Shown here piece after piece: positions 6,196 to 43,468 of a stretch of DNA of 64,000 nt. The notes beneath the pieces are model-generated. The model did no database searches. It was not told where the DNA came from and saw only the letters and a list, made by a program, of their open reading frames with translations. The DNA is from Podospora anserina (lineage: Eukaryota): positions 1,736,001-1,800,000 of the forward strand of contig CM030337.1 in the NCBI GenBank assembly GCA_017654855.1, written 5' to 3'. A program made the translations under genes and the position numbers. Position 1 is the first letter of the stretch, and every line of letters starts with the position of its first letter.

Positions 6196-6336
6196 ACCGT
6201 GAGCGGCCGCCAAACGGTGTAGGCACACTTTTCCTTTTTTTGTATCTGTCAAACATATAAAGAGGACCGAGTGCTACCTCTTGCCTTTCACCGAAACTAT
6301 TACAGCCAGTTCGACAGCCTGGTTATCTTCAGAATC

Positions 6337-13097: not shown

Positions 13098-13132
13098 GTC
13101 TATCTGACAAAAGAATAATAACTGCTGCTTTA

Positions 13133-20294: not shown

Positions 20295-20455
20295 GACGCC
20301 TTTACTCTCGTACAATTTGACTCCGCTGGTCCGGAGGGTAGCGCACTCGAGGGAATTTCGACGACATAAGGTAGGTAGGTAGGTAGGTATGTTTCTTTGA
20401 TGATTTGGTTTTGGGTGGTATGTTTCTTTAATAATTTTGGGTAATAGATTCGGTG

Positions 20456-22014: not shown

Positions 22015-23635
22015 ATGATGAGCATCGAGACACTCGATTTTGCTGGCCAGGCGACTGATCTTGTGTTAGAAGTTGGCCCCAAACCAATTCTTCTGAGAGT
22101 ACAGGCAGAGCTTCTTGAGAAACACTCGCCGGTCTTCAAGAAAATGTTTCTTCCAGATCAAATGGATTCTATCACATTTGATGGATCGGGTACACGACAT
22201 ATCTCGCTTCCGGAAGATAACCCTACTCTATTCCGAGCCTTATTCTACGCTATCCACGGCCAGTTCGCCAATGTAACTGCCCTTTTTACTGTTCTCAACT
22301 TCGCGACAATTCTACAAACCATCGCATTGGCAAGCAAGTATGGAATGGTCCCAGTATTTAACCCATGGATAGGCAGTCTGGTTCTACGAATCCGAAGAAG
22401 CTTGCAGCTATTAGATAGCAGCGAACTTGTAAGTTGCGCCCTGATTCTCAGATTTATCGGGGACATTGAAAATCTATTTCTCGCCATCTACATTCTTGCC
22501 CATTTTGCCAGTCGGGAGGATAAAGAAGGCAGGATGATTCTTGATTCCATACAGCAGCCTTAGTCAGCAGAGCAGTGTCAGACGCCTGCGACAGGATATC
22601 TCCAAGGGATTCCAATTGATGCAGGCTTAGACCTGATAGGTAAGACAGAATCAGAACCCATTCTCACCCCTAACTAACATTGAGTAATGGAACTAGATGC
22701 TATTGAAAGTGTACGGGAAGGCTTATATCGCAACATAGCTATGATCGTTCAGAAGAAGTTTCGAGAGTTGAATGACGCTTCCCAATGCCGATGCTATAAG
22801 AAAAGTATGAGGGCCATTCAACAGTTCCTTTCTCTTTCGCAAAATCAAGAAGAGCAGATCTTTCTCGACCTGGTAGGATCTGAGGTTGTTGAAGTTCAGA
22901 CCCTTACATCCTTTCGGCGCACATCAATCGCAAATCTAATCACTCTGGTCAATACTACGATGAAGGCAGGAATCCAGCCGTACTCTACCGGGAGTAAGTC
23001 TTGTTTCACGTGGGAGCCGCGCTAGATAAACCATCATAAGTTCGACGTCGCTTCAATTCCTTACATCATCTGTAAGGCGGATTATTTTAGCAGCATAGCT
23101 AATCGGCAAATGTCAATTCGAAGACATGATCTAGGGCTCAATTCAAGTTTGCACCGGTCATCGGTCATCGATACGGCATTGAGCTTAGGTCATCACGCGC
23201 AACTACGTCCTCAATCACAACCTCTGCTTTTAACTGCTGGATCGTCACGGCGCTGGAGGATAACCAGAATATCTAATTTCGTTTTTTGTTTTGAAGGTGC
23301 ATTTTACTTGGAGCAGCAACTCTACGCCGATTCTCTATACATCCACTGCCGAGCTCAGTTTCCGCTGCCACCCGGGGCAAAATACTTTTTGGATATTGTT
23401 GGACATGATATTGATGGAATTTACTATACCGGTAGGATCATTCATCGACTAACATACGTTTCGCGTCGTGCTGACCCATCTTTGCTTAGATGAAGAGCCT
23501 TGCTGCGCGGTGATTGCACGGACTTATGGTCCGGACTATACGGCATATGAGTTTCAGTCTGCACAAGAGCAGAAGGACTTCTTAGCATCAATGAGCGCAG
23601 TTAATAGTAAGAAGGTCTCAGTAGTGAGGAGGTAA
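22015..23635 (+). pseudogene. BTB/POZ-domain protein; in-frame TAGs at 22561 and 23023
   Basis: DLVLEVG..LRVQAELLEKHSPVFKKMF..ISLPEDNPTLFRALFYAIHG..IALASKYG is a fungal BTB signature. The frame continues past both TAGs, and there are two GT-AG introns. Confidence 0.75.
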
Positions 23636-23668
23636 GCACATCATTTTCTCTGTAACAAAAGCAAGCAT

Positions 23669-24713
23669 CTAACCATATAATAGGCAAATCTTGACTGGTT
23701 TGGTGAGTTCGTTGGGGGGAGCGATGAAGTGGCAAGCGGGTGAGGTGTAGAATATCTTCTCGAGGAGTTCTTGATGCTTAAGGCAGGACAAGATGTTGAT
23801 AGTATGATAAGATATACGCTGGCGGAGGAAAATGTGGCAACTCAGATCTCTCGTCCTCCACGTGCTGAACCCGATCGTGTGTAACCATAACCTGACAGAG
23901 TGCTTCGTGATCCACATCTACCCCTATAGCCTTGTTCCATTCTGATAGCAGCATCGAGCTGGATGCTAGAAGTTCGCCAGGCAGGCCAGTGAGGTAGATG
24001 ACCTATGTGCGTGTCAGCACGCGATGTTGAGAATTTGGGATAAACGCACAAGCAGAAACTCATCATCGTCAGAACACAGCAACCCTGCACAGCAGCTCAT
24101 CGAACAGAGTGATATGATAATGTAGGCTAGAAGCTTTCGTCTCTGAGATCGTGATACAAGTAGTAGTCGTGTCAGAAGAAGAAGGTACTCCGTTGCAGTC
24201 CAGGCATGTATTGAACACGCAATGACAAGAATGCTAACTCTGCCGACATTGGCAATGTGGTGGGCGCTTGCCATGATCCCCCCAAGCAAGAGGGCACTGC
24301 CGGCGGCCGCTGAGAGAAGTTTACGTCGACCACGGGGCTCAGTCCAAGATACACAGATCATGTGTATGATACGCTGTTTTATGTTATTGAGTGGACCGAT
24401 TTTGGGGGCGACAGCCTACTTCTGAAAGTGTGCGGTAGATTCCAAGCGCATAGATGCAAGTTTCAAGCCGTTGGACAAGCAAAGGCGGTATAATAGCCAC
24501 AACTGACAACTGGGCAATCCAAAGGCAGTCGAATGCCAAAGCTTGCGAGGTGAAAAGGCCTTTGTGCTGATACTGTTGCCCATGCGACCTCTTCCGGGTA
24601 GCGAAAATGCCGTTGGAGAGGGCATACCGTCTCACGAGGAGCCCTCCGAGGCTGAGAGCGGCCATTGTCCATACGATGACAACGAATGAAACTGCGGCCG
24701 CTGAGTGCGCCAT
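23669..24713 (-). CDS. Multi-pass membrane protein (divergent PTH11-like), possibly disrupted; 3' end uncertain
   Basis: VVIVWTMAALSLGGLLVRRY first helix and several further hydrophobic segments over adjacent ORFs. Confidence 0.4.
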
Positions 24714-25005
24714 GGGAAAGACCTGGAAATTCGGAGAAGCCCGTTGGAACTGCACAATTTGGTCTGAACGAGCGCAGGCCAACGGTGTTTTGTAGACCCC
24801 AGCCCCATTCTAAAACTCATGCCTTCACAAGCAAGGCATCCGCGCCGCCAGTACCGCCAACGAGCTGCCTCCAGGTAAAAATAGTTCAGTTCTTATGATG
24901 GCTATAAGTATCTAAGGTATGTCGTGAGGTGATGGGTGACTTCTTGCAGCCGTGTCATCGCTCACCTACTAGCTCACATCCATCAAACACCCAGACTTGA
25001 TACAA

Positions 25006-25648
25006 ATGGCAAGAAGCAAGACACAGGGTCGAAGTCGTCCCCGGCGCAAAACGTACAAAACAAAGAATGTCCCATCCAGGAAGGTCTGGGAACGTTATCA
25101 AAACTACAAATCTTTCTTCCGTAAGTCAACACTATCCTGTACACATGGGAAGCTTAATCTAATCCACAACAGTTAACGAAACCAGATTCCGTGTCGGTGA
25201 TACTATCTCCGTTGCCAACCGTGATACGGTGAGGTGGCAGCAGGACACGGGAGATGGCAAAGCAGATGCAGATTGTCAGCCTAAATGGGCCGCACGCATC
25301 ACATCTATCAGGGCTAAGGATCCTGCAAACGTCTATGCACTGGTTCAGTGGTTCTATTACCCCCGTGATCTTCCCGAGAAGGCGCAGACAGATGCCGTTT
25401 TTGGTGAACAAGAGCTCATCTTGTCAAATCACAGTAGGTGGCCAGACCGCAGCTGGTAGAAAGCTTGTGACACTAATCACTTTGGGTACCTAGCCGATCT
25501 TATCCGAGCGCAGAGTGTCATAGACATTTTGGAAGTCAGAGACCTCCGCGATGTTGACGATGCACCACGACATGGTATGTACTGGAGGCGGTTCTGGGAC
25601 GTTCATGCTCGAGACTTCTCCAACAACGCAAATATCATTGGTCTGTAG
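25006..25648 (+). CDS. Standalone BAH-domain protein, EPR-1/BP1 (EBS/SHL)-type, lacking a PHD finger; 3 exons
   Basis: Spliced translation: YQNYKSFF|LNETRFRVGDTISVAN..WAARITSIRAKDPANVYALVQWFYYPRDLP..FGEQELILSNH|TDLIRAQSV..GMYWRRFWDV. Confidence 0.8.
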
Positions 25649-26524
25649 GATAAAATCCCTAGGTAGTTTGTTGCGCAGTAAACGGGGTCGGTTTTTTCTA
25701 TCCTACACCAATGACATTATGTGCTGGGTTTAACTCTTGTCCAATCGCGTGTTATATACAGATGCTTATCAACAAGATCAAATGTGGGGTAAGAATTCTG
25801 TGCCGCAGCTAAATCCATGGGTTTGATGAACACTAGGAAAGTTCGGGTCCCATTACCGAATATGACTCTACTCCAGCATCGCCACTTTGGTGTACAATAT
25901 TTATAGTGTTGTCAGGTATTCTTGAAACAGAAAGAAAGATGCTCTTTACTTTAATCACATGATTCAGGAAATTCAGTTCGATATATAGCTGGACAAAAAC
26001 CCCTACAATATTTCAACATAGGCACATCCTGAATCTTCTGAATTGCTGTTCTAGAAAACAACCAACAAATCACAGTAACCCATGTGAACTAATCTGGATC
26101 TCCCGCATTTGCCCCACAAAACCGATCCTTCGCTCCTCAGCTCCGCGCTTACCCATCAGCCTTACCATTCAGTCATGCATGGACAACGTTCGATGCCGAA
26201 TCATTGACTGTTGCCGGCAAGCCAAGTCACTGCAGAGCCGCGGTATTACGCTGCAATACTATATAGCTGCAAGATGCGTTTGGTCATAAGAAGTCAAGAT
26301 CCTTAGAACATTTATCCCATTCAAACAAAACTTGTAGCTACCTTGGATCGATGAGGGTAAAGCGGTACAACAATAGCATTCTGGTACATTTGTCCTTCTA
26401 ATCGATAACTTCGAATCCCATCTAAATCTGTCTAAAACCCGTCTATTATATATCTACCTATCTCCTGTGTCGTTTTTGTCCTAGTAGTTGTGCGAAGGCG
26501 TGCATACGACTCCGTAATGATTAC

Positions 26525-26864
26525 TTAGCTTGCATGAAAGTCCTTGTCGTCCTCTCCTTCACCAACGCCCCCAACTGTATGTGGAGTATAGATCAGCGGC
26601 AAGGGATATGATGTCGACTGAGAACCCAATTAGGAATGTGGCACGGAAAGCAGGTAGATAGATACTTACAATGTTCTTCTGGGTTGGTGGCCATTCTCCG
26701 TCCATTGTATTGGAAGAGTAAATGTAAAAGCGGTGGTTCTTTCGGATGATCAAGTAGACCTGGGCGTCACAGAGCTTATGGAATTCGTCAACCTTCTTGA
26801 TGAGTGTCTGTCTCCTTTTCCTGGTACGTGCCAGTCGTCGTTGGTGTTCTTTACGTTTATCCAT
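26525..26864 (-). CDS. Small SRF-type MADS-box protein, 2 exons
   Basis: RKRRQTLIKKVDEFHKLCDAQVYLIIRKNHRFYIYSS..WPPT, then a GTAAGT intron, then STSYPLPLIYTP. Confidence 0.8.
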
Positions 26865-27016
26865 GCTGAGGGTAGATTTACATGATTCAGATCATGTTAC
26901 TCCCCGCCTTGCTTTGCGGTCAATATATGTGGAAACAGCTTCAAGTTGTGATCCAAATATAGGAGAAAGTCCTGACACAGTAGCTTTTTTGAAATGATAT
27001 CGAGGTAGGATTGGAG

Positions 27017-27107
27017 ATGGCGCTGGCAATGGCGCTGGCGATAGCGATGGCGCTGGCAATGGCGCTGGCGATAGCGATGGCGCTGGCAATGGCGCTGGCA
27101 ATGGCGC
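27017..27107. repeat. ATGGCGCTGGCA / GATAGCG composite tandem repeat between the divergent MADS and C2H2 genes
   Basis: Directly visible 12/18-bp units. Confidence 0.85.
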
Positions 27108-27410
27108 TGTGTCTCATATTGGCGATGTGTGTGGAGCTGGTCACCGATCGTCACCTTTTCTCACCGAAGCACCTATACCTAAGATGGAACTTGACCCCTA
27201 CCTCTCGTCCAGAAATAGGACCCTTTAACTTGTTTTCTCCCATATCCTAGGTCACATGATCAAGTTTTACATGTAGGAGAGCATCTTGCTTCGATGGACT
27301 TGACCAATCAGAACAAGTTCCAAACGGTCGGGTATATGTGACAGGCTTATAAACAACGAAGGGAAACAACACTTTTTACCAGCCTGCTTTCAGTTATCCC
27401 CGCAATAGTT

Positions 27411-28159
27411 ATGAATTTTCAGACCGATGTTTCGTCCTGCTTCTGGCCAGTCCCTGTAACAGGCCCGGGGTCGACAGTCAGTCCAGAGTATTGTCTACAT
27501 GAAGCTCTTTTCTCACAACACTTCAAACCGACCAGCCATGACAACACATACTACAGCCCGGTCGGCTGGCCACCACCTCCCCGAAGCACGCTATTAGCCC
27601 ATCCTCAAGGGGCACCTTTCTACAACCCGACCATGGATGCACCTAACTACCACAACCAGGACTCCCAGAGACAAGAGTGTAGCCAACCACCGCAATCTCA
27701 CACACTGTGGGAAAGGCCACCGCCTCGCCGGAGACGTACAACCCGTTCCTCATCACACGTTTGCAAACTGTGCAATAAATGTTTCACACGGAGATACAAT
27801 TTGTCTGCTCACATGGAAACACATAACAAAGATCGAGAGCACCCCTTTCCCTGTATGGGGTGTACGAAAAGATTTGTTCGTAAGACGGATTGCGAACGCC
27901 ATTACAAAAGTGTTCATCTGAAGGAAAGGCCTTACTTCTGTGGGTATTGCAAGCAAGGATTTACCCGCAAAGACATCCTCTCCAGGTCAGTAGAAATACC
28001 GAGTTGAATTCTTTTCCATTTTCTAACAGTTAGTATTTTAGACACATGGCAGTTGTATGCCCGAATATCGAAAGACAACAGGCGCCTGAGGAAGAGGACA
28101 GGACACATATGAAAAGTTTAAACCAGTTTGTTTGGGCCGGAAGCGATAGGGTTTCATAG
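27411..28159 (+). CDS. Three-finger C2H2 transcription factor, 2 exons
   Basis: CKLCNKCFTRRYNLSAHMETH, CMGCTKRFVRKTDCERHYKSVH and CGYCKQGFTRKDILSR|H, with an intron at ~27986-28040. Confidence 0.9.
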
Positions 28160-28363
28160 TTTGGGAAATTGTATCATATTGATCGACTTTGGTTTTGGGT
28201 GTGCCTGATGCTTTGGCCGACCTGCTAGGTACGGCCAGGGATTTGGTATGGAGTTTGGAGTTGGGTCAGTACTGCATATAACAAATCTTTATAAAGTCCC
28301 TCCTCTCCCCTGATATGAAATGCTTCTCTTCGTTACTTCCCTTACCTTTATCTGGCTGTTACG

Positions 28364-31300
28364 ATGCCTGTGGCTCGTAGCTTAACTGAAAAAGCCGCCA
28401 AACGAATCGCGAGACAAGTTCAACGCTTTGCCTTTCAGAATCCCAACACATTTACCTCCGATGATGTGAAAATCGCGGTAGCGATCCAAGGCGAGAATAT
28501 CAAGGGTCGGGATACTCCTCGAGATGATGAATCGGAACTTACGGAAAAGAATCTTGCTTGGGCCAAGGAGAAGACCAGAGTCAAGGATATGCAACGTTTG
28601 AAGGACTACTATATGGCAAATCAAGACAACAACACGACTCAGACCGAATTACACAGTCCCTATTCACCCGTTGTCCTCAAGGATACTAACTCAAGACAAA
28701 CACGAGCAAAGACTGCAGCTGGACTGCAAAATACAACGCCTCGAGTCAAGGAATCCTCTGTCACCCCTGTCAACGGACCCGTGGATACAAACGGTAAAGC
28801 ATTAAAGAATACTGCAGAACAGGGAAAGTCGGGGAACTTAAAGGGACAGACTACTGTAGCTGGACTACAGAGAAAGGAGTCTTTACAAGGTCCAAGTGCT
28901 ATGCAACAGCAAAATGAAATTTTGAAAAAGGCACAAACGTCAGAAGTTACGCTGGCGCCTTCGAAGCCGAAGCCAAAGCAAGGCCAAAGCCAGACGACAA
29001 ATCAACCGCAAAGAAAGCCAACATTAAACGGTCAGAGTGGCGGCCCACAGGCACAAATCACTCCACAAGGCACCGGCATGCAAAAGAAGGCAACTTCGGA
29101 TGGAAACAGGTCAGACTCACAGCGAGTATTAGTTGCTAGCCTGCCAAAATTACAAATCCCACAGGCACCGGAGCTGGGAAAGGAAATTACATCTGCTCAA
29201 CAGAAGAAAGCGGCTGAGCCACAGAGAAAGGGCACGACATCTCAGAAGTTAGCTGAGCCTCAGACTGCACCTACTCAGCAGAGGAAGATGACAGAGCCAG
29301 CGATAAAGGGAACGACGTCGATTCCCGAGAAGTTGGCTGAGCCACAGAGAAAGGGAACGACGTCAACTTCCCAGAGGAAGGAGGCTGAGCCAGTGAGAAA
29401 GGGAACGACGCCAATTACTCAAATGGCCGGGCCACAGAGAAGGGGAACCTCTGGGCAACCTCCTACGTTTAATATACAAAGAAAAAACTCTTCACAGTTG
29501 CCCATGGCCGAAAGAAATCAGAAACACCCGCCACAGCATGATTATTCAGTAGGCTTGCGGGTTTTTCCTGTAGCCCCGGATCAAAAGTCTTCGCAAGGGC
29601 AGGCTGCTGCATCACACAAGCCTGCTACCCCCACAGCACACAGCTTGGGACAGTATCACAAAAAACAGGGTACTTCACAAATACCCGGACAGCCTTCAGC
29701 GGGGCAAGAACAATCCGAATCTCAAAAGAACCATGCAACAAGAGCAACTCCACATAGCATAGAAACAGAGATATTCCCCAACAGCCTGACAGGTTCCAAG
29801 CGCAAGGCCTCCGGCCCTCTTCCAACGACCGGCACAAAGCGTTTCCGCCCAGACACCGCAAGAGCGAATGTACAAATTAACGGGAATGAAGAGCTTGCCA
29901 CAAAGCCATTATCTCACAGGGATTCAGATACACGCCAATCAGTTCAAATAAATGACGCCCCGCAAGGGGTATTAGAAACACAGTCGAAGGAACCATTCGA
30001 CGAAGACACCATCATGGCTGAGTCGCCAGTTGAAATCTCATCTACCAGCAACCGAAATAGAAAGAGGCAAAAGAAGTTGGTGGATAGCGAAAAAAGTATC
30101 AATGATAAAAATGATAGGAAGCGAAAACGACAAAACTCGCACTCTTCTGGCGACGAGGTAAATATCAGGCCCTTTGCTCAAACATATCAGTCCAATCAGC
30201 ACCAGAGTCATGAGGCTTCTTCTCAACCAATGCAACACAAAAAGTTCACCCTTCAACCTAGTGTATCTCCGGAAAACAACATATCAACGGACCAAACGTC
30301 AATAAATTCGAACAAAGCAGCCGAAGTTCACATACCGCAAAAGCCGAATATTATATTCGAATCGATGTACAAGAACTTTCAGAATCAACGTCCTGAACCG
30401 CAGGAAAATCCTACATCCCAAGAGAAAAACTCACCAACTAGTCAGCCTGCGCAGCTATCGGGACAGGAGCCCGCTCGAGTGAACAGCCCAAAAAGCCCAC
30501 AAGGCGAAGCACAAGCATCGCATATGGGTGAGCAGCCCAGATCCCGGGATACATCAACACCAGAAAAATATTCACATACATATCATCAATGTAAAAAGAT
30601 GTTTGATAAAGAGAGGCAGCTGTTTTCCGGACAATCACTACCGTCCGTGACTCCAAATGTGAGCCACATACACCCGCATTTCTCAACCACGAAGCAAGAG
30701 GTTGACGAAACTTGGCCACCGCATATCCGACGATCGACCAGCACGTGTACTTTGGATGGGAGGCCGGTATTGCCGCAACAATACCAAAGCCAGTTATTCA
30801 CGCAACGGAATTCGGGCACAGAGAACGAGGCTTGGCCACCACAAGGTGCTCGATCGGCTAGTATATCCACACCGCCACAATACCAAAGCCAGCCATTCAC
30901 GCAACTTAATTCGGGAACGCATTATTCACCTCCAGACAGTCGATACCACCATGCGAGAGGAATTAGTCCTTATGCGGACGAGCGGGAATTATTTCAACAA
31001 TTCCAAGACTGGCGTGTTCGCCAGCATGTGAACGCGCCCAATCGTTTAGCTTCTCGACAACCTACAGAAATTCCCCTCTTTAACTCTAACAGTTTGCTAC
31101 CAAAATCAAATTCGAAAGATAACTTCACCTATCCATCTTCGTCTTTGAAGATAGAGCTTGCGCTAAACAAAAGACTCGCCAAGATACAATCGGGAAAGCC
31201 TGCAGGACAGCCGCCCACCTATTTAACATTTGATATTCAGAATGGAAACCAATATTATAGATGCAAGGGTGAAGTTATTGGTCTCGATAGACTTCTCGGT

Positions 31301-31663
31301 ACGCAGTATCTCTATGTCGTTGGAATGATGCCAAACGGTGTCCCGCAAGGACATCTCCTTAAGGCCAACCAATTTCCCGAAATACAAACACAGCTGGCAC
31401 CCTACAACAACGCCATTACGAAAACGGAAGTTGTTAATTTGAAGCCGAAAGATGTGACGGTGTTGAGTTTTGCTATTATCACATCGAGTGGCACTCGTAG
31501 AACACCAGTGGTTAAAATCGAGCTATTCAATCATCGAACCAATAGCATCCAGCTTTGCTCAAGAACTTCACTAGCAAATGCTCTTTCCACGGCAACCGTC
31601 ACAGCGACATTAAGGGAGATCTCAAAAACGACCTCGCAAGATGTATCCTTTTTGGATAAATAG
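28364..31663 (+). CDS. 1099-aa largely disordered Q/S/T/K/P-rich protein with a small globular C-terminal domain
   Basis: Uninterrupted 3.3-kb ORF with AEPQRKGTTS repeats, NLS-like RNRKRQKK and RKRKRQ, and an ordered last ~170 aa. Confidence 0.75.
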   Translation: MPVARSLTEKAAKRIARQVQRFAFQNPNTFTSDDVKIAVAIQGENIKGRDTPRDDESELTEKNLAWAKEKTRVKDMQRLKDYYMANQDNNTTQTELHSPYSPVVLKDTNSRQTRAKTAAGLQNTTPRVKESSVTPVNGPVDTNGKALKNTAEQGKSGNLKGQTTVAGLQRKESLQGPSAMQQQNEILKKAQTSEVTLAPSKPKPKQGQSQTTNQPQRKPTLNGQSGGPQAQITPQGTGMQKKATSDGNRSDSQRVLVASLPKLQIPQAPELGKEITSAQQKKAAEPQRKGTTSQKLAEPQTAPTQQRKMTEPAIKGTTSIPEKLAEPQRKGTTSTSQRKEAEPVRKGTTPITQMAGPQRRGTSGQPPTFNIQRKNSSQLPMAERNQKHPPQHDYSVGLRVFPVAPDQKSSQGQAAASHKPATPTAHSLGQYHKKQGTSQIPGQPSAGQEQSESQKNHATRATPHSIETEIFPNSLTGSKRKASGPLPTTGTKRFRPDTARANVQINGNEELATKPLSHRDSDTRQSVQINDAPQGVLETQSKEPFDEDTIMAESPVEISSTSNRNRKRQKKLVDSEKSINDKNDRKRKRQNSHSSGDEVNIRPFAQTYQSNQHQSHEASSQPMQHKKFTLQPSVSPENNISTDQTSINSNKAAEVHIPQKPNIIFESMYKNFQNQRPEPQENPTSQEKNSPTSQPAQLSGQEPARVNSPKSPQGEAQASHMGEQPRSRDTSTPEKYSHTYHQCKKMFDKERQLFSGQSLPSVTPNVSHIHPHFSTTKQEVDETWPPHIRRSTSTCTLDGRPVLPQQYQSQLFTQRNSGTENEAWPPQGARSASISTPPQYQSQPFTQLNSGTHYSPPDSRYHHARGISPYADERELFQQFQDWRVRQHVNAPNRLASRQPTEIPLFNSNSLLPKSNSKDNFTYPSSSLKIELALNKRLAKIQSGKPAGQPPTYLTFDIQNGNQYYRCKGEVIGLDRLLGTQYLYVVGMMPNGVPQGHLLKANQFPEIQTQLAPYNNAITKTEVVNLKPKDVTVLSFAIITSSGTRRTPVVKIELFNHRTNSIQLCSRTSLANALSTATVTATLREISKTTSQDVSFLDK

Positions 31664-31809
31664 ACTGCGAAATGTTTTGGGAAGGGACATAATGAATTTA
31701 AAGACTGGGCTTAAAAGTATTGGTTCTTTAAAGGATGTAATATTTTTTTAAAGTAAATTGAATTTTAAGAAGAATCCACCCTATAGAATTAGCTACAAAA
31801 TACTCCATC

Positions 31810-32340
31810 TTATCCATTGCCAGAATAATGCTGAAAAAGTGAGTAATAGCCACCTTTCCTAGCAATAAGATCTTGATGTGTTCCCTCTTCGCAGACTTGA
31901 CCATTGTTTGATAAAAATAATATGTTGTGGGCGTGCATGACCGAGGATAATCGGTGCCTAGAAGCAATAAGTGATTAGTACCTAGGTGAATGACCTCCAA
32001 AAAGATAGGTACATACGCAATAAGAATTGTTGTCTTTCCTTGGAACCACTCTCTCAGGTTCATGTTTACTTGAGTCTCAGTATCGGCATCGATTGCACTG
32101 GTTCCCTCGTCTACAACAACAATATCGGGGTTTTGGACAAACAAGCGAGCTAGCCCAAATCTTTGTCTCTCCCCGCCCGACCATCCACTACTGTGCACTC
32201 GATTAATATTGTCCCAGGTCACAAATGTTATTCAAACTTACCCTCCACGGCTAAGTACCTCATGGTATCCGTTCTCGCGACTCATAATACAATCGTGGAT
32301 GTTCGCCTTCTTGCAAGCCTCGCGGACCTCTTCGAAGCAC
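31810..32340 (-). pseudogene. C-terminal half of an ABC nucleotide-binding domain (5'-truncated paralog)
   Basis: EEVREACKKANIHDCIMSRENGY, WSGGERQRFGLARLFVQNPDIVVVDEGTSAID and IA|HRLSSV..EEGTHQDL. Confidence 0.85.
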
Positions 32341-32366
32341 AGGATACTTACCACGCACCCATGTAG

Positions 32367-32550
32367 AAATTTCTCGGGCGGCGAGAGGCAGCGGATCCTC
32401 CTGTCCCTTCCCCTGACCAACTTCCATACTTTATGCATAAGCTGACTTTTCTGGTATGTCAGTCATCGGCTATCCTCCATCAGGCATGTCGAACAGATTT
32501 TTGTACTGGGTACAAACGGCAAAATCACGGAGCGCGGCACTCATGGCACA
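32367..32550 (+). pseudogene. 3' remnant of an ABC NBD; likely continuation of the 1872-2839 gene
   Basis: TAG acceptor at 32364-32366, then NFSGGERQRILLS and later HRLSSIRHVEQIFVLGTNGKITERGTH. Walker B is deleted. Confidence 0.75.
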
Positions 32551-34205
32551 GGAGAGGTTCTAGTCATGCGTAGAAAACAACATCGTACTGTTAAAATCTG
32601 TAGATTTTTGAGTAGAAAGAGAAAGTTTGGAAGAAGAAGACTACAAAGCCAAGTTCACAAATTGTTACTGTACCTAAGCACGCTTTAATCGTAGTGTACC
32701 GAGTCACGAATGTATGATCATCGCGGCAGCCCTGCGCTCATCAACTTGCGAGGGACAAGCGCCTCTTCCGGCCCCATATCGGCTTCCGTCAAAGAGCCGT
32801 GATCCCCAGCCCGGGACAAACACACGCAAAATTGCGCTGAGATGTCGGCCGAACAGTGAGCATCAAGGTATGGATCTTAAGCACAGACAAAAAGGAAGAA
32901 ATGCAAGGGTGAAAAAGTGGGATAGAATAGTAGGGTAGGTAGGATGATGGCTCATGATCCCAAAAAAGCTACATGGTTAGGCATGGAAGCCCTTCCCCGC
33001 ATTGGACAGGATATCAATGAAGATTGATGACATTATTGAGTTGGCTCCAGAATATCACTACAATTTTCCCCTCCCGCCGCAGCATCCTTCCCCCCCGCAA
33101 CAATCGCCATCTCCAATACAGCAGCGATTTGCAACAAACCGGAGCCGCTACTACGCGGAAGAGCAGGACCGAGGAAGGTGACCCGAGAGCGCCGCCAGTT
33201 ACTCTCTATCGTCCATCGCCCGCACACGGTATCGCCCTCTCTCTTGCCTAGCCAACCCGGCATTGCATAGACATCCGCTAACCAGCTCCAGGATACATGA
33301 TGGCTGATGCCGCAGCCGACTCCCGCCCGGACAAGCGACTTAACCAACGACTGCCGCGCCCTATCGACGACGGCCCGTAGCAGCATGTCTGGGTTATCCA
33401 CTCCGAGTAGAACGTAGAGGGACGCCCGCGACCGGCTGACGCGGAGCAGCGCACCACCATCTCCGGCGGCCATGCCGGCGCTTTAAGGAGGCTGCGCGTA
33501 TACCGACTTCCAAAAAACCACTACCTCTATGTCCGATGGGATTTGCCATCGACGCAGGCCGAATTCACAACCCTTGGAAGAAAGCTTGGGGTCGACTACA
33601 GCCTCGTACAGTCACTTTCCATCAATTGGCTGTCCTGGAAGTTCCGTGTCCGCCCGGTATTCGTTGAGCATCACAATGGCCTGCCGTTTGGCAGAATCTT
33701 AGCCGAGACGTGCGCCTTGAGGGCTTCGATGCGAGAGCGGGAGGGGATAGATTCCCATGAATGCATAAGCCTGTTGTAATATACCACGCTTGCCTTTGGA
33801 TGTTTGGATACTCGTTTTGATGAGGGTAGATGACTTTGGTGAAGGAGGTTAAGGATATCCCTCCTAAGCTTTCCTCACACCCCAGTATAGTGTATGTCAA
33901 CTATCAAAGAGTCCTCCAGCCACTCGCTATATTCAACCTTATTGCCTGTCCCATTCGTCGTTGTCTGCTGAGCACCACCAAAGTGATGCTTCAACGTCTT
34001 CCCGTCAGCTCCACCATCCAGGCCATTGCTGTAATCCGCCCCCAGTGTCCCCAAGTTCGTCTTACCACACGAAGATCCGCTCCAACCTACCTTCGTGGTG
34101 AGAACAGCTAAATCCAAGTATACAAGGCTAGCCGAGTACGCGGCTGGGCGGGGAGAAGAGCGGGTTGGGGCTCCTGCATTAGTGCAACTTTTTACAGCCA
34201 CCCCC

Positions 34206-34606
34206 GGCTGACCTAACGACAGGGATCACAAAACTGTGATGCCTGTAAGTGTTAATGGGCCTCTTGTTCAACGATGTAATTTTAGCCCGCAATGCATGTC
34301 CGCAGTTGCGTCTAGCTAGTTTTGGTTTCCGGATATAGGGGAACCGGCCGCCTGGACGAGCATCTGGAGCGCTCATATTCTACTGGTCAATGTTGGCTCG
34401 CTCACATTGACTTCCGGGGCTGATGCGTGTACGGCGTTCAATCTGCACTTTCAAGGATCACAGTTTTGTGTTCCATATCATCAGGTCAGCTTTGCCATCT
34501 TACAGGCATCACAGTTTGTGATCCATGTCGCCAGGTCAGCCTTTGGCCCATCTGCACTTTCAAGGATCACAGTTTTGCGATCCCTGTCATTAGGCCAGCT
34601 TTTGGG
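34206..34606. repeat. Three ~55-bp direct repeats with palindromic core GATCACA-GTTT-TGTGATC plus one inverted copy
   Basis: Units start at 34441, 34497 and 34550. 34206-34249 is the reverse complement of the unit (CTTACAGGCATCACAGTTTTGTGATCCCTGTCGTTAGGTCAGCC). Confidence 0.85.
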
Positions 34607-34880
34607 TCATGTTCCGAGCCAACCTTCTGATTTACACAATCGGCAGTTGACGCTGAAGTCGAACTACCCACACTCGGCATCACTATGAGCTGGTAAATTA
34701 GGAAATACTTGAACTTAATGAGGTCTATTGTCTGTAAAGACAGTTAAAGTATTTAAGTCTGACCGATACTCCCCTATTTGCTTTCATACCTGTCTCTTAT
34801 TCTCCACAAGCCAGACACAGTTTACCTCTATTTATTATCGGTTTACTAGCACCTTTTACTTCTACTCTCAGCATATCAAT

Positions 34881-35859
34881 ATGGTTAAGTTGAGAGACGT
34901 TCTCCTTCAGGCCCCGTTTCCAGATAATACTGCCTCATTTCACAGATTACTAGGAGCTGGCAGACCCACTCTGACCCAGAAGCCCTGGGCGCGAGACTAT
35001 CATGAGATCCAAAACCTTCAATACTATCTAAACCCTACCGAAGACGACATCGATCAAGTGTTTGGGCCCGAAGATGCTTTAGACGCCTATCTCCTGAACA
35101 GGGAGGTAAGCCCTCTAAACGTCACTACCGAATTGTTACAGACGGAGGGCGACTCTGTCAGGACATTCTACACCAAAGTCGCAGAACCCATCCAGCTCGC
35201 CTTCCAACCAGTTGTCGCTTTACGGTCAGAATCAGGACCTCTTGGCCCAACCGACGTTAACCAGACCATTGACTTCACTTGGGGATATAGAAATCATTGC
35301 CTTATAATAGGGGAACTTAAAAGGCATGGGATAATCGATGTCGATAGGTGGACGGGAGTGGCTGGACAAAATACTACTCGGACCTGGCTAGGAAAGGAGC
35401 TAAGAGGGTAAGTATAATAGCCCCATAATAATAACTGTTTACTGATAGATATATAGATACTGCTATAAATACAAATGCTTCGCTGGAACAATATTTGACG
35501 GCCAGCACCTCATGATCCTTATATTTCATGCTCAGGCAGCTCGGAATATCCGCGACCAAAACTGCCAAGTTACTGCCCTTTTTTTCACAAGCAACTGGGA
35601 AACATTACGCTATGGCCTCTTCCGGACCATGACCCATCAGATTCGGAGAATGCAAGCTGCCGAGCCCCTGGAAGTAATCTTGGATGGTTATCATCGTAGA
35701 TTCAGATGGTATTCAGGAATGCCTTATTGGGTTGATAGGAACGATGAATACGACGCGCATCCCAATGGTTATATACGGCAATTTCATGTGTCCGGGGCAT
35801 GGTACTGGATTGACGGGGATGGGCAGCGGGTCTGGGATACTATCGGCCTCGGGTTTTAA
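34881..35859 (+). CDS. PD-(D/E)XK restriction-endonuclease-fold-like protein, 2 exons
   Basis: QTEGD..TIDFTWG..LIIGELKRHG..KELRG|YCYKY..IFDGQHLMIL gives E..D..ExK..ExxxY spacing. The intron from ~35408 joins in frame, and there are no internal stops. Confidence 0.65.
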
Positions 35860-36025
35860 CATCTGCAGTTTCCGCCTAATTGAGTTTTGGTGCCTAGAAA
35901 AGTGGATCCCACTCGTTTGCTTGTGCTACCTTCTTCTTTTTATAAAAACCTTAAGCCAATTCCACCTCGCTTAATTTTCCTGCGACCATTCTCCTCTATC
36001 ACTCTACCCTATCAATTACTTCAAG

Positions 36026-36952
36026 ATGGAAGACAATGAAGACTGCGGAACTAAGGTATATACTTTAACTTCTAAATACTAAAATTTACTATTATTAATC
36101 GTAGTTCTATAGGACATACAGTTTGGCTTCCGACGTTTTCGAGCACCTGCAAAACGAATCTACGCGAATCGGAATGTCTTTCTCTTGGATGTCCCGCCGA
36201 ACCCAATTGCTAGCTGGCTATTATTTTGGATGCCGCAGCTCGTCCGCTGGCTACAGCGATTACTACCAGAGTGGTTCTTGCCGACAACTGTTATTCTAAA
36301 GGAGCGAAACCCCACCAAGGCTGATAGCTACGAAAACGAAATCGATACATACCTGCATCTTCGATCCCTCCAGGGTACCCACATCCCGCGTTTGTTTGGT
36401 GAAGTAACCGTTAGCGACCCCCACGCGCAGAGATACCAGATCAGTAAGCGACCCACTCCTGCTATCCTCCTAGAAAACGTCGAAGGAGTATCGCTATACA
36501 ATCTTCCAACCGAAGAGCTAGGGAATCCTCGCCTTCTTGAGGAACTCGAGGATATGTATAACCTACTTACGGAAAAAGGGGTTGTTCATGGGGATCCAAA
36601 GCTCCACAACTTTCTACGTGTTGATAAGAAGATCGTTGCTATCGACTTTGAGTTGTCCTACCCTCTTCCTAGTGATATAACGAATGAGCATGAATTGGAG
36701 GAATTAAAGAGCGAGATTAAGGAACGGGAAAAGCAGGCACAGGAGGCAAAATTGGAACGTCTCGTCCCGGGCCCTGTCATTGTAAATGGTTTACGGGTAC
36801 GAAAGAGGACGGATTTGCCGCCTTCCGGCACAACGACCCATAACGAGCAGAGGGGTGACGAGGGGCTGTCTACCCTGGGAGCTCAGCTACCTAAGGTGTG
36901 TTCTCGGCACGGGCGTGTTGGGCCGCGGCCGGGAACGACATATGGTGGATGA
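36026..36952 (+). CDS. Atypical protein kinase-like protein (same motif style as the SPOK kinase domain), 2 exons
   Basis: VILKE (beta3 Lys), ENEIDTYLHLRSLQGTHIPRLFG, ILLENVEG, HGDPKLHNFL (catalytic loop) and IDFE. Confidence 0.85.
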
Positions 36953-38386
36953 GGTGGAGAGGTGGTGTGGTGAGAAAGAAGGGGAGGAAATGGAGGTTAG
37001 CGGAAAGTGAGACGTGGGGGGTGCACTCGGGAAGGATGGATGGGCACTGACGGGAGTAGGAGGGGTTTCTATGTAGGAGCCGGGTGGCCGGGTTTATCTG
37101 CCGTTTAGCTCTTCTCCCTTAGTCAAATCACATGTTAGGCAAGGCCGAGCTCCGGCATGCCGACAAGAGGAGTGTGCTCGCGTGGATCTTCAACTGTACG
37201 CAACTGCTTCTGGCCTTCGTGTTCGACGGGTACTGCTAGATTCTGTAACACATTAGCAAGACATCTCAGGAAGGAAAGGACCGTCTCACCTTTTGATGTA
37301 GTATCCTGCCCTTCGGGTATAAGTGGATTGAAGAAGCCATTCACTGGGCACTGCTTCCCACGCGGCCACAATTGCCCGGCGAAGTGGCCCAGGCCGTGGG
37401 TTTTCCACATCGTAATGTAATTCAATTCAATTTTTCATCCAAAACCTCACATGTTCAATAGGATTCAAATCAGGACTTTTTGCCGGCCAATTCAAATGTT
37501 CAATGCCCACACTGGTCATGACGCACAGGCCAACCCGCAACAGATTCTTAAATGTTACAGGCGATGGAGACTTTGACTGACGTGCCTGTCCCGCCCCTGC
37601 CCCACTCCTTTTTTTCGGCCTGGCTTCCTTCTGACTCTTGGCACGTGCCTGGCCAAGTCAGGCTCCATCAAAGGAGCCCCCACCTGTAACTCCGCTCGAC
37701 CACGACATTCCCGCAACGACCTCCAGCGTGCTGATCTCGCTCATGGACCCAATAACTTCGCTACCAGTACATGCCAACGCAGAATCACAAACTCATGTCT
37801 CAAAGCCAGCAGGCGTACAGTGAACGGGACTAGGCCCATCGGCCGTCGTATTGAGCGGGAGATCCAACTATCTAATTAACCCTAGCCAACCCGAGACAGT
37901 TTCCACATTGGTGGTACGTGCTGTCACATGCATGACGGGTAAGGTCCACCATAAATCAAAATTGTTATGATATCATGGCGTCTCCAAAGCAAGGCCCCCC
38001 TTGACAGCAGGTAGCAATAGCGCAACAACATCCAGCGATACCCGTAAGAACTTGTCTAACCCAAGATATTTCACCCCCTCTCATCGTTGTTGTGGTGGCT
38101 GTTGGTTGCAGCTCAAAATTCATCCTCTCTTTTTGACTGATATTCGGGCATTTCGTCGAGTGTTCACCGGCTGACATGGCTGAAGCTGGCATGTCGATCT
38201 GCGAATGTAAGCGTGGTGATCTGGTCTATCAAGAGATGTGGTAAGGTACCTTGAGTCAAGCAACGGGGAGAGCTTCTGAGGAGATAAATTACGTTATTTG
38301 TGGAAGTGGTATAGGAAAAAGGCACGTTCAAGACGAAGACCATACGTTCTTTTTAAGGGATACAGAAGAGATTGAAGCATGTGTTT

Positions 38387-38556
38387 GGCGGAGGGAGTGG
38401 CGGAGGGAGAGGGCGGAGGGAGTGGCGGAGGGAGTGGCGGAGGGAGAGGGCGGAGGGAGTGGCGGAGGGAGTGGCGGAGGGAGAGGGCGGAGGGAGTGGC
38501 GGAGGGAGAGGGCGGAGGGAGGGGCGGAGGGAGGGGCGGAGGGAGGGGCGGGCGGA
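38387..38556. repeat. G-rich array of GGCGGAGGGAG(T/AG/G) 12-13-mers
   Basis: About a dozen copies; the core is the reverse complement of the CTCCCTCCGCC core of the 6061 array. Confidence 0.9.
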
Positions 38557-38589
38557 GCAGAGACCGAGGGAGAGGATTGCAGGGGTCAA

Positions 38590-39260
38590 GGAGATGCAAG
38601 TGTCGCTTTTCCGCAGAACGGTACCTGTTTTTTATTACCGGCATACCACCATATATAGTCAGATATCCCGAAGATATCGAACCGCCGCCAGCCACGTTCC
38701 ATAGCTTTGGTCGGCAGCCCGATATGTGGGAACGATTCTCTCAGCCGTATGTTTCCCAGCTTGGGAAGATTGTATTGCCATTGGAAATGCCCGAGTTTCT
38801 TTCGCACGCTCTGGGCAATCAGTCCCCACTTCCCCAGCTCCAGGCATAGGTACTTATGAGAGGAAATATAAGGGAATCTTGCGCCAACATGAATCCAAAT
38901 ACGTTCCACTATCACTGCCCACTGTATCACCACGATATATTTCCCTCCAGATTCACGCGTATAAATCAATTATTACTACCAGGATTGCAAGTATGTCCTG
39001 CCTGCGAATGGGAAACTCAGTCCTTCCCGGTCTTCTTCCCGATGGAGTTACTGCGGTCGAAGCATGATTTCAGGGTCACTTACGACATGTCCCTTGGAAA
39101 GTACTCACGTTTGTCTGACATATATCGCTCTAGAAGCCCCATCATCAGATTCATTAGGAAGGAAAGAGTGCTGAACATGAAAGAAAGAAACTCGGAGATT
39201 TCTCACGATATTGCCGCTGCCCGCTTAAGCAGAACTGGAAAGGTCATCTGCTCTCATTAG
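38590..39260 (+). pseudogene. Hypothetical protein with in-frame TAG at 38847-38849
   Basis: ORFs ending 38849 and starting 38856 share a frame (LQA*VLMRGN). The start is uncertain. Confidence 0.35.
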
Positions 39261-39603
39261 CGCGGATTGGCTATTTCTGACGCTCCCAGTTTCAGTTTGA
39301 CCCCTCTTCACCAACGCTCTCAGATTAGAGTGGCTCGGTAGATCCCGAGTTAGAACGGCGCGGTCGGCCGTGCCATGACACCGTCGCCCGAGGACAAGAG
39401 TTGATGGATGCCGCTGGCGGCGCGGTTGTCATTGGTGGCATTTCTGCTCCACTAACAGGTCAACGACGGCACGGTTGCTGAGCGATTGTTGCTTCATATT
39501 CCTGTGGCCGTTTCAGATGACCCTTATAATTCAGCACTTAGAGCTCTCAAATTTTGCAAATTCAGCATCATCGTACCATCCTCGGCCCCATCAGCTCAAA
39601 AAG

Positions 39604-40227
39604 ATGACCAGAAGTGCGACTCTCCGACGGCCCAAGGCATCCCGTGCTATGCCCAAAAAGCGTCGAACAACCCGTGCTCCCAAAAAATATGGCGGCGCCT
39701 GCAAGCGGCATACCTCGCGCGCTCACAAATGCTCGGTTGGTTTCCAGCACCTAACGGGCAACATAGAAGCCACCATATCATCACCGAATGAACACACGAA
39801 CGAACCCGGCCCGGAAGGCAACACTGATCTTGCGACAATCCAAGCCATACAACCCCAAACGACTCAGTCACAGGCCTTCGATTTGATTGATCAAGTTTTG
39901 ATGGCGGAGTGGGACTCCCTTTTCGAACAGCCTCAGAATTCTTTCCCGGAAGGCCAATATCAATTTCAGATGGCAGAATGGGACTTTCTTGCCTCTGTGT
40001 GGGCCGCCCCGGGCCTGGCCGGGGGGACCGAAGATGCGGCAGGATTTGGCTATGACTGGACGAATTTTGATGAAAATTCCACCAAGTTGGACCATGGTTA
40101 TGCGGGGCTGGTTGATGGCAGCATGGGCTCGGATAATGGCCAGCTTTTTGGTTTAGAAGATATTTGGAGTGGGTTGGAAGCATACGATATACATCAGTTC
40201 ATGGACAGTCATATTGGGGAAATGTAA
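39604..40227 (+). CDS. Hypothetical protein: basic N-terminus with ACKRH..HKC motif and acidic/aromatic activation-domain-like C-terminus
   Basis: PKKRRTTRAPKKYGGACKRHTSRAHKC and a D/E/F/W-rich tail; convergent with the captain. Confidence 0.45.
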   Translation: MTRSATLRRPKASRAMPKKRRTTRAPKKYGGACKRHTSRAHKCSVGFQHLTGNIEATISSPNEHTNEPGPEGNTDLATIQAIQPQTTQSQAFDLIDQVLMAEWDSLFEQPQNSFPEGQYQFQMAEWDFLASVWAAPGLAGGTEDAAGFGYDWTNFDENSTKLDHGYAGLVDGSMGSDNGQLFGLEDIWSGLEAYDIHQFMDSHIGEM

Positions 40228-40475
40228 AGGCTGAATTAGATTACTTAAAATGTAGTTGGAAGGTGATGTTGTTATTTACGGTGGTGGGCTGAAGATAAAT
40301 AAAAGACAGATATAGGTCGCCAGGAGTAAATACACATGAAAGATTTTGCTACCAAGAAACTGAGAAGCTACCTTAGGTAAAGACGAAAAAACTCCATGCT
40401 TGAAGACCCCAAATCACGAACGAACTGTTATGTCTACTACGCTTGAGTCAAAGTGCTGCTACCAACTGGGAAAGC

Positions 40476-43050
40476 CTACATACTCTCTTTCCGCTTTTTC
40501 GTATCAATGTCCTGGACACCGTCATCCTTCCTTTTCCGCTTTCTTTCTATCTTGCCACACACAGCTGTTCCCGCTTGTCCGTCCTGCTGATGACAGTTCC
40601 ATGTATGGTCCAACCACTCCTCGCGTGTTTTTATTTCCACCGCTACCAAACCTTTCCTCTTGCATTCCGGGCATTCAAATGGCTTTTTGAACATCTTGCT
40701 ATGGGACTTATTGACATGTCTTGAGTGGCTATTTCCGGGGTGGTGCATTTGTTCGCAAAACAGGCATCGGGCTGATCTGGTCGTTGGTGTTTTAGTTGGA
40801 CGTCCCTTTTTGTCAGACCTTTTACTAGGCAACCACGGCGTATAATTTATACCGTGGCACTTGGCTGTGTGGTTACTCCACGCCTGAGGACCTTCAATAA
40901 TAATATCGGGACAAAGGGGGCATGGTATAGGTTTGTCGAACGTCCCCTTCTTGAAGTGTTGATCTTGGTTGTGCCGTGTTAAACCATTACGGTTAGCGAA
41001 GGTGCGTTGGCAAAAGAGGCATGTCCATGCCTTAGTATCAGGTTCCTCAACCATCGTCTGCGCTTCGGTGAGAGAATGTATCACTGCCTTAAGCTCTGTG
41101 ACACGGTGCCCCAAATATGAGACGAGCATTCGACAGTATATCTCGGTTCTCCTTGGCTTCCCAAGATCTCTGCCAGCCAAAAACCTGCCCATGTAACCTC
41201 CTTGGTCGTGAGGATGGGGGGCAGGAGGGGTGCCTCGGGGTATCGGGATATCTTCAATCGACTGGCCTAGCGCCCGGCGTCGATCCACCTCTTCCAAATA
41301 TTCACCTCTCCGCTTTTCCACCATCAAGGCCAGTATCTGTTTCCGTCTATTCGCCAGCGTAGCATAAGCTCGACTGATATCGGGAGAGGAGGATCTTGTT
41401 TTTGCCTGTTCATACTCCCAAGTAAGCTTGGTAATATCCTCACGTTGTCGTAGACTTTTCTCATCCTCTTCGGTAGGATATAGGGGTGCATTGACGTCTC
41501 TGAGAAGTGTGGCGCGCTGAAGACTGCGAAAGAGTGAGTGGTGTTCTCCTGCGGCATCAGTGCCAAATATGATTGGCATAAGCTCCTGGCGTATATGCTC
41601 TGGCTGGTAGCTCGATTCAAACACAGCTGTTGTATTTGACATAAGGTGACCGCGCAAGGCCGGAGTCAGAGGGCCTGTGTCAAGGTTAGTGAGGGCTTTG
41701 AAAGATCGTCAGGTTTGAATCGTACCATCGAGGAGAGACCCTGCACCAACGCGCAGCGAGTAAGGCCTGATCGTGTCGCGGTTTCCCGCCACACGCCACA
41801 ACTCATTCCACATGCCCCAATACTTATAGTAGGGCATAGGGAAAATCTCTTGCTCCATTTTGTCTTCTTTCCATCTAAGATCGAGGCAGTCCGTCTGGTC
41901 TAAGTTTGGTCGCGTCAGTATCTCCTCTAAAGAACCAAACTCAGCCTCGAAAGCATTGTCGTGAATAGCTTGTGCGATAATCAAGCTGAGAAGACAGATC
42001 GTCTGGCATGGGACAAGAGTAATAGAGAATTGTACGCTATAAAATATTAGAAGAGGAGTCTCAAAGTACTATTTGCTGACCACTTACACTGCATTGTGTG
42101 AGTTTGCGGTATACTGGCGCCTCTTATTGTGAACAATCTTAATCGTTGCGCAAATCGCAAGATTTTTCGGATTATTATCAACTCGCAAGCATCGAATACG
42201 AACATGCTGATATTTAAAGGAGACAATAGAGCCAGGGCGGAACCCAAATCCTGCGAGTAGAAGGACCGAGTGAAATGCAACCCGTTGCCTTGCGGTACAT
42301 CGGAGATCTGATGGTCGTGTCCAGAGCGTGTCCAAAAGGAGAATAATATCGTCAGATGTTAGAACTTTCTTCTCAAATGTTTGCTCCCTGGATAAATAAA
42401 GCTCATCGCTCAATTCAACTCGAATCCACTACGTAACTAGTTAATACTTGATCGAAAATAAGAAAATGAAAAGACTAACCCTGGATACATCGGCGACAGG
42501 TCCAGACCCGGGATTGCCCCCGGCCCCCACGTCCGCCCATCTTAACTTCCATTTATGTCTATTATTCGGGTCGTTGTGTCGTGCTTCGTTCAGAATAGTT
42601 GTGTCGGCCATGTAGACGATATTCCTCCAGAAAGTAAGAGCCGACTTCGCCGCGGATATGGTCTGAACTACTTGTGTTTCGGATTTACCAATGGCCGGGC
42701 GCTTTTGTCGTGACCGTAGAACGTACTCATAGAGAAATGCCCGAATCAGGCTTTTGGGTTTATCCTTATTCTCACAAAAGTCCATCCAAGCAGTCGTCAT
42801 GCTGTAATCTTGGTAGGGAATAGTACGATACCACCTACGAAGCTGTTAGTGGCTTGCCTTCTTGAACTATTTAAGGTACTAACCACTCAAACTTTTGCCA
42901 ATCTCTTTGGGCGGCTTCCTGGGCTTTTTTACTGACGGGTACAAACTCGAGGATCGGATTTGACTCAAACCGCTGGATAAGTTGAGCAGCGCTTACGAGC
43001 CCGGCGTCCTCATCATCCGAGTCGAGTGAAATTTGGAGAACTCGAGGCAT
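40476..43050 (-). CDS. Starship captain: DUF3435 tyrosine recombinase with four C-terminal C2H2 zinc fingers, 5 exons, ~790 aa
   Basis: Four GT-AG introns splice in frame with no stops. Motifs GFRPGSI (R), HNKR (K), RPYSLRVGAG (YxxR), LMSN..VFESSY (Tyr) and RDVNAP. Fingers: CLFC..H..H, CPLC..H..H, CLFC..H..H and CPEC..H..H. Confidence 0.92.
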
Positions 43051-43096
43051 GGTTATTAGAAGGCGTGGACGAGGATATGCTTGACGTGATGCTGGT

Positions 43097-43152
43097 GGAT
43101 GATGGTTGATGGATGATGGTTGATGGATGATGGTTGATGGATGATGGTTGAT
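43097..43152. repeat. GGATGATGGTTGAT x4 in the captain 5' leader/promoter
   Basis: Four perfect 14-bp copies. Confidence 0.9.
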
Positions 43153-43400
43153 GGATGGTGGGTTGAGTTGGCTAGCTGATGTTAACCCGCAACGAAATGA
43201 TGGCGGGAATCCATATAAATATTATGGATTAAAATTATCTATTTAAAGTAGTGGCGCTGGCATAACGGTGTTTTGGACGTTATGGCTACGCCATTTAAAA
43301 CGGGCACAGCCGTTAATTGCTTAACATGAAGATCTGTCGCGGCCATTTTCAGCCCTCGTTCTGTCACAAATTTGGGTGGTAGATATCTCAAAAGATAAAA

Positions 43401-43461
43401 CTGGTAGAGCCGAACCAGTACTCAGGTGGGTTTCCACTGGGGAATCCTCGGTGTTGTATGT
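43401..43461 (+). rRNA. 3' half of a 5S rRNA gene (about nt 58-118), interrupted by the Starship
   Basis: CTGGTAGAGCCGAACCAGTACTCAGGTGGGTTTCCACTGGGGAATCCTCGGTGTTGTATG shows loop E AGTA/GAA, helix GTGG/CCAC, CCGA/TCGG pairing and the ascomycete 5S end TGTTGTATG. The upstream sequence is not 5S-like. Confidence 0.85.
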
Positions 43462-43462
43462 A

Positions 43463-43468
43463 TTTTTT
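43463..43468 (+). terminator. RNA polymerase III oligo-T terminator of the 5S gene
   Basis: TTTTTT immediately after the 5S 3' end. Confidence 0.7.

Follow-up and report, generated by a model that had tools for sequence, protein, structure and literature searches.

At positions 40476-43468 of a 64,000-nucleotide stretch of the Podospora anserina genome (NCBI GenBank assembly GCA_017654855.1, contig CM030337.1, positions 1,736,001 to 1,800,000 of the forward strand; hereafter the window), a gene for a DUF3435 tyrosine recombinase lies next to a truncated 5S ribosomal RNA (rRNA) gene. This arrangement raises the question of whether the recombinase is the captain of a Starship, a giant transposon, and whether that transposon has split the 5S gene by inserting into it. 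Our answer, to which we give a probability of roughly 85%, is that the window contains the captain-proximal ∼43 kb of the element Starship-2_Pans, with an intact captain, inserted into a dispersed copy of the 5S gene that was split by the insertion. The captain model, its conserved residues, the 3′ piece of the 5S gene and the terminator behind it were computed from the window; for the ends of the element, its empty site, its direct repeat and its family assignment we rely on the literature; and we infer that a whole 5S gene was the target, how the recombination proceeded and how the published coordinates map to the window. An initial annotation of the locus, made from the sequence, had proposed that a Starship whose captain is intact interrupts a 5S gene at its middle, and this proposal agrees with the DUF3435 captain and its conserved residues, with the published Starship-2_Pans and with 5S homology that sets in at the direct repeat.

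The captain gene and the published element

The gene at the centre of the argument was modeled as follows.

40476..43050, minus strand: captain gene, encoding a 790-aa DUF3435 tyrosine recombinase with C-terminal C2H2 fingers (splice model)
43050-42884, 42834-42480, 42428-42088, 42036-41726 and 41674-40476, minus strand: captain exons, stop codon included (splice model)

The captain had been predicted to splice to a stop-free protein, and the five exons do give an uninterrupted product of 790 aa, with four introns of 49, 51, 51 and 51 nt that all run from GT to AG and contain a CTAAC-like branch site. When the product was scanned against Pfam exon by exon, DUF3435 was matched by exon 3 (19.1 bits), exon 4 (24.4 bits) and exon 5 (22.5 bits), each below the 25.8-bit cut-off if taken alone, and the three matches are collinear on the profile, covering positions 2-79, 97-210 and 215-336 of 418. 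Exons 1 and 2 had no Pfam match in this exon-wise scan, exon 5 also showed weak matches to C2H2 zinc fingers, and no CHROMO domain was found in the captain exons at E ≤ 1. With the last exon as the query, a search of 1.84 billion representatives returned 386 relatives (E ≤ 0.001), and for 59 of these the E value was 1e-30 or lower; a search for longer homologues gave a single match, a 927-aa Xylariaceae protein with 31% identity.

We aligned the spliced captain with 18 relatives and regarded a residue as conserved if it was present in at least 85% of these 19 sequences. Against full-length relatives the captain aligns without gaps over all four exon joins, which supports the five-exon model. 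It also retains every conserved residue of the recombinase part, namely R238 (in GFRPGS), K276, Y380 and R383 (both in YSLRVGAG) and Y414 (in SSYQP), with Y380 occupying the H position of the R-K-H-R-Y pattern of tyrosine recombinases. The same order is followed by the active-site columns mapped to XerD and Cre in Table S5 of Gluck-Thaler & Vogan 2024 (PMC11162782), and matching by motif order suggests a catalytic role for each of these captain residues. Toward the C terminus, the last third of the protein (40476-41100, minus strand) bears conserved Cys/His pairs and the C2H2 zinc-finger matches, and a sequence search of the PDB with a profile of 16 captain relatives had as its best match the C2H2 zinc-finger protein Aart (E 2.4e-07). 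The fold was assessed on the AlphaFold model of a 40%-identical, 858-aa captain relative, with a mean predicted local distance difference test (pLDDT) score of 71. In a Foldseek search the best structural matches of this model were Cre, XerH and Flp (probability 1.00, target template modeling score 0.42-0.53, E 2.7e-3 or weaker), and its zinc-finger tail matched the fingers of CTCF. Judged on this relative, the captain is predicted to have the tyrosine-recombinase fold.

The last captain exon is 100% identical to PODANS_6_2430 of P. anserina S mat+, and we place the window on chromosome 6 of that strain. The NCBI model of that gene (388 aa, window 40479-41642, minus strand) spans the last exon only and begins just before the catalytic tyrosine, and the recombinase domain is therefore absent from the reference annotation.

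The element itself is already known; it is the catalogued Starship-2_Pans, or Pans_Starship2, of P. anserina strain S, with a length of ∼60 kb. Table S1 of PMC11162782 places it, as predicted element Pans_s00063, at FO904941.1:1692414-1752609, gives an end at 1752613 according to starfish, 4 bp past the manual end, and lists a direct repeat of TCTC (manual) or ctct (starfish). The same table gives an empty site on CP071498.1, i.e. in another genome, which rules out continuous synteny across 43400. Only one captain is listed for chromosome 6 in Table S3, podans1_209680, at 1749683-1752254 on the minus strand; its span of 2572 bp is exactly the length of window 40479-43050, and the strand agrees. 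Resting on this captain span, the published coordinates would be offset from those of the window by 1,709,204, which takes the manual end of the element to 43405 and the starfish end to 43409. The sequence AGAG at 43406-43409 serves as a check on the mapping: its reverse complement is ctct, its plain complement TCTC. The boundary suggested initially, near 43390-43400, accordingly has to be moved 5-19 bp to the right.

1..43405, minus strand: in-window part of Starship-2_Pans, with cargo and captain; captain-proximal ∼43 kb (Table S1 of PMC11162782)
43406..43409, no strand: direct repeat and putative crossover, AGAG on the plus strand and CTCT in element orientation (direct repeat of Table S1 and window sequence)

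Two details of the Table S1 entry may be recorded here. Read against the sequence at the mapped end, the manual direct repeat TCTC is its plain complement rather than its reverse complement. The manual length is given as 60406, whereas the coordinates span 60196, a discrepancy of 210.

Both podans1_209680 and "Starship-2_Pans-Captain" are placed in fam09 by Table S4 of PMC11162782, and Table 1 of the same paper names family 9 Arwing. The entry for Starship-2_Pans (Gluck-Thaler et al. 2022; Gluck-Thaler & Vogan 2024, PMC11162782) agrees with the window in organism, in captain length, strand and position and in the direct repeat, and makes no remark on 5S in the available parts of these sources. 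A full-text literature search found no mention of Pa_6_2430 or Pans_Starship2, the accessible part of the supplement of the 2022 Starship paper has no Podospora entry, and two Podospora papers mention Starships in general terms or in the reference list only.

The organization of the left part of the window fits such an element. The captain is the first gene of the element: from the mapped end, 355 bp lead to its ATG at 43050 and transcription runs inward, which is the layout of Starship captains, and ∼40 kb of open reading frames (ORFs) to the left of the captain form the cargo. At E ≤ 1e-5, Pfam families were matched by 3 of the 42 stop-to-stop ORFs with 120 aa or more on this side (JmjC, C2H2 and an APH-like kinase) versus 9 of the 22 to the right of the junction, many of the ORFs so counted not being genes. 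No Pfam match to the DUF3723, ferric-reductase or patatin-like families was found among the scanned window ORFs, and a repeat search of the window, outside which the far end lies, detected neither inverted nor direct terminal repeats that include the terminus. Mapped from the published coordinates, that far end would be ∼16.8 kb to the left of the window edge. The base composition has TpA/ApT ratios of 0.77-0.80 and (CpA+TpG)/(ApC+GpT) ratios of 1.13-1.22, with 0.77 and 1.22 for the element, which by the usual thresholds carries no signature of repeat-induced point mutation. The intact captain and the presence/absence polymorphism together fit an element that may still be mobile, as had been suggested.

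The 5S rRNA remnant at the element end

Strong 5S homology begins precisely at the published junction, at position 64 of the Rfam 5S model RF00001. Three features meet here.

43376..43405, plus strand: final 30 nt of the element, with a weak likeness to 5S (adds 5.3 bits to RF00001; match reaches model position 29)
43406..43462, plus strand: 3′ remnant of a 5S rRNA gene in the host flank (RF00001 model positions 64-120, 24.9 bits, E 0.001, flagged as 5′-truncated)
43463..43468, plus strand: six consecutive T immediately behind model position 120, which fits an RNA polymerase III (Pol III) terminator

The remnant aligns with model positions 64-120 end to end, with one non-standard pair flagged in its internal helices, and it is followed by a T-run, the signal at which Pol III terminates. 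The initial annotation had described about 60 nt of the 3′ end of a 5S gene and its T6 terminator, some 350 bp from the captain ATG. We find 57 nt, or up to ∼87 nt with the weakly similar stretch counted, the T6 at 43463-43468 and a distance of 356 nt between the start of the remnant and the ATG at 43050. In E-value mode, RF00001 matched 43345-43462 on the plus strand with 27.5 bits (E 0.0011 over a 401-nt stretch), and 43376-43462 scored 30.2 bits over model positions 29-120. Adding 43345-43375 thus lowers the score, and we conclude that a whole 5S gene is not present. None of the three scores (27.5, 24.9 and 30.2 bits) reaches the gathering score of 38, as would be expected of half a gene; what is present is a fragment rather than a gene. 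As to the last 30 nt of the element, their 5S likeness may be due to chance, the gain in score being small.

The mechanism that we propose is one in which the captain would integrate the element by site-specific recombination into one copy of the dispersed 5S rRNA genes, at an insertion point around nucleotide 63-67 of the gene. The crossover would fall inside the four bases CTCT and leave a 4-bp repeat. This would split the 5S copy, with its 3′ 57 nt and the T6 remaining at 43406-43468 and its 5′ part expected at the far end of the element, ∼16.8 kb to the left of the window. Deprived of its start and of the front of the internal promoter, the split copy would presumably be dead. Such a landing site is in keeping with what is reported of other Starships, and the statement in the initial annotation that some lineages target dispersed 5S rDNA agrees with the literature. 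According to PMC11162782, 5S rDNA accounts for 23% of the curated Starship insertion sites; five or more different positions in 5S serve as targets, each internal to the gene, and Arwing (fam09) belongs to the three families for which a preference for 5S rDNA is reported.

Several results weigh against this reading. At the gathering score, Rfam gave no match in the whole 64-kb window, and the RF00001 match at 43345-43462 has an E value of only 0.17 when the search space is the window. In E-value mode no second 5S-like piece, including the 5S 5′ half, was found in the 64 kb. On the side of the captain, the PDB sequence search with the 16-relative profile returned zinc-finger proteins only and no recombinase, and Foldseek had no match at E ≤ 0.001 with the model of the relative. 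The mapping of the published ends presupposes that positions are numbered alike in FO904941.1 and in the JGI chromosome 6. In the available part of Table S1 of PMC11162782 (30 rows), the label "targets 5S" stands beside three other elements and not beside Pans_Starship2, and the main text of the 2022 paper, as far as it was accessible, names Voyager and two further 5S-targeting Starships and not Starship-2_Pans. The published direct repeat of Starship-2_Pans, at 4 bp, is shorter than the 6-16 bp given for 5S-targeting elements in PMC11162782. Finally, the 87 5S genes of P. anserina comprise 72 full-length dispersed copies and 15 partial ones (PMC2441463), so that truncated copies arise for other reasons too.

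The missing label in Table S1, the 4-bp direct repeat and the partial 5S copies, and with them the RF00001 match below the gathering score, are also what would be seen if the Starship were real but had split no working 5S gene, having landed at the edge of a 5S pseudogene that was truncated beforehand, or if the 5S likeness had nothing to do with targeting. In that case, however, the truncation would coincide with the mapped direct repeat only by chance, given that homology begins exactly there; the 5S 3′ end and the T6 are intact, and the captain belongs to a family that inserts mostly in 5S rDNA. We consider this explanation improbable. A crossover further to the left, at ∼43376-43390, would instead make the last 15-30 nt of the "element" host 5S sequence and put the boundary near 43390-43400. 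It would account for the 5.3 bits and the extension to model position 29 that 43376-43405 adds to the RF00001 match, and the letters of the manual direct repeat, TCTC, occur at 43386-43389. Yet the manual and the starfish ends, both set against the empty site, map to 43405 and 43409, AGAG matching the published letters stands at exactly 43406-43409, and the gain of 5.3 bits is small, which leaves such a shift with very little likelihood. The recombinase could also be a solitary DUF3435 or Crypton-like gene with no cargo element around it, given that most DUF3435 genes are "solo" according to a G3 2025 paper and that both the far end and terminal inverted repeats are missing from the window. 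For exactly podans1_209680, however, PMC11162782 gives boundaries, set by hand as well as automatically, together with an empty site. This last possibility we find scarcely credible.

The insertion of Starship-2_Pans into a 5S gene copy, the reading that we retain, may be set beside other systems. Bacterial integrative elements that enter tRNA genes by means of tyrosine recombinases usually restore the RNA gene. Starship-2_Pans differs from these in that its element side does not rebuild a whole 5S gene, the full-length alignment scoring less than the truncated one. What the two share is the tyrosine-recombinase fold class (Cre/XerD/lambda-Int, from the structure search of the captain relative) and the use of a small, conserved RNA gene as a place of stable insertion, an analogy that is drawn in PMC9156397. 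[quoted passage not shown] Voyager of Macrophomina phaseolina (fam10) is likewise a giant element that always inserts in, and splits, a 5S rDNA copy, but it does so 20 bp from the 5S 5′ start, at the 12-bp target GCCCTGTATTCT, and belongs to another family, whereas Starship-2_Pans would sit at about position 63-67. Osiris of Aspergillus fumigatus, a member of the Enterprise family, also inserts in and fragments 5S rDNA and differs in its captain family. In Podospora, Enterprise has a captain, Kirc (fam06), that likewise joins a zinc-finger domain to a DUF3435 recombinase; here, too, the captain family is a different one, and Enterprise targets a palindrome and not 5S.

As a discovery the locus has little weight, the element, its boundaries and its family being published and 5S rDNA being a known landing site of Starships. 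The absence of the 5S label from the Table S1 row of this benchmark element, in the part of that source available, is possibly a missing annotation. P. anserina, an easy and harmless laboratory model, has 72 dispersed 5S copies of full length and just one intact captain of the family, which makes it convenient for testing 5S site choice by a Starship recombinase.

Sequence arrangement around the junction

Between the captain ATG and the host 5S sequence lies a series of features, the roles of which are putative.

43051..43405, minus strand: last 355 bp of the element, between its end and the captain ATG
43096..43166: 14-nt tandem repeat TGGATGATGGTTGA, five copies with 96% matches, between the captain ATG and the element end
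43252-43267 / 43278-43293: 16-nt hairpin within the terminal 355 bp
43296-43312: subterminal copy of the junction sequence (14 of 17 positions), 100 bp inside the element and adjoining the hairpin
43400..43419, no strand: junction palindrome, composed of ACTGGT at 43400-43405 (element), the 8-nt spacer AGAGCCGA and ACCAGT at 43414-43419 (host 5S)

The spacer of the junction palindrome contains the direct repeat AGAG. Near the junction this is the only 6-bp inverted repeat with a spacer of 6-8 nt. The window has 43 such repeats, and the number expected to cover a random 4-nt site is 0.0025, a figure that has to be read with the fact that the pattern was spotted after the event. The subterminal copy at 43296-43312 is itself palindromic (AACGG-GCACAG-CCGTT), and the motif WAACGG occurs three times in 53 nt in its vicinity (window 43252-43315), while no enrichment of WAACGG was seen over the window as a whole, where 46 occurrences were found and 47 expected.

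The junction palindrome is a candidate for the core site of the recombinase and a possible addition to what is known. Taken together, the palindrome, its subterminal copy and the 5S-like last 30 nt of the element, all of them noticed in hindsight, look like a putative core site with a subterminal binding site, although all three could instead be native 5S sequence or the product of chance. Carried further, the junction would expose the site at which an Arwing-family captain recombines in 5S rDNA, with ACTGGT/ACCAGT half-sites, an 8-bp spacer holding the 4-bp crossover, a second palindromic copy, an element end that imitates ∼25 nt of 5S and C2H2 fingers that perhaps read the 5S internal control region. 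We put this forward tentatively and think it rather doubtful as a whole; that the fingers of the captain might read the internal control region left beside the junction is speculation. If it were true, a eukaryotic giant transposon would possess a site architecture similar to that of Cre/lox together with a targeting module. In the parts of the Starship literature available, no description of such a site architecture for an Arwing-family captain was found.

Other features of the window

Within the cargo, an APH-like kinase-domain ORF lies at 36113-36949 on the plus strand and has 52 relatives across Sordariales, the best of which show 86-94% identity and come from other Podospora species. According to Vogan 2021, the closest gene to Chekof of Enterprise is Pa_6_2440, which encodes a kinase domain and whose number adjoins that of the captain. 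None of the 52 relatives is a P. anserina entry, and the ORF is at most a candidate for Pa_6_2440. A 1114-aa open frame with internal repeats occupies 28319-31660 on the plus strand, in a region where the skew of A over T rises to 0.34; it has no Pfam match even at E ≤ 0.01. Two G+C-rich minisatellites, at 6024-6213 and 38349-38570, share the core CCCTCCGCC / GGCGGAGGG in opposite orientation and are 32 kb apart, both inside the element.

No tRNA gene was found in the 64 kb. To the right of the junction, the host flank at 43985-63706 encodes an inhibitor-I9/subtilase protein, an NPHP3_N protein with ankyrin repeats (NLR-like), an ankyrin ORF, two HET-domain genes, an alpha/beta hydrolase and a DUF7587 protein. 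The ankyrin/NACHT (NLR-like) gene pair thus lies outside the element, and the gene set of this flank is typical of variable, non-self-recognition regions.

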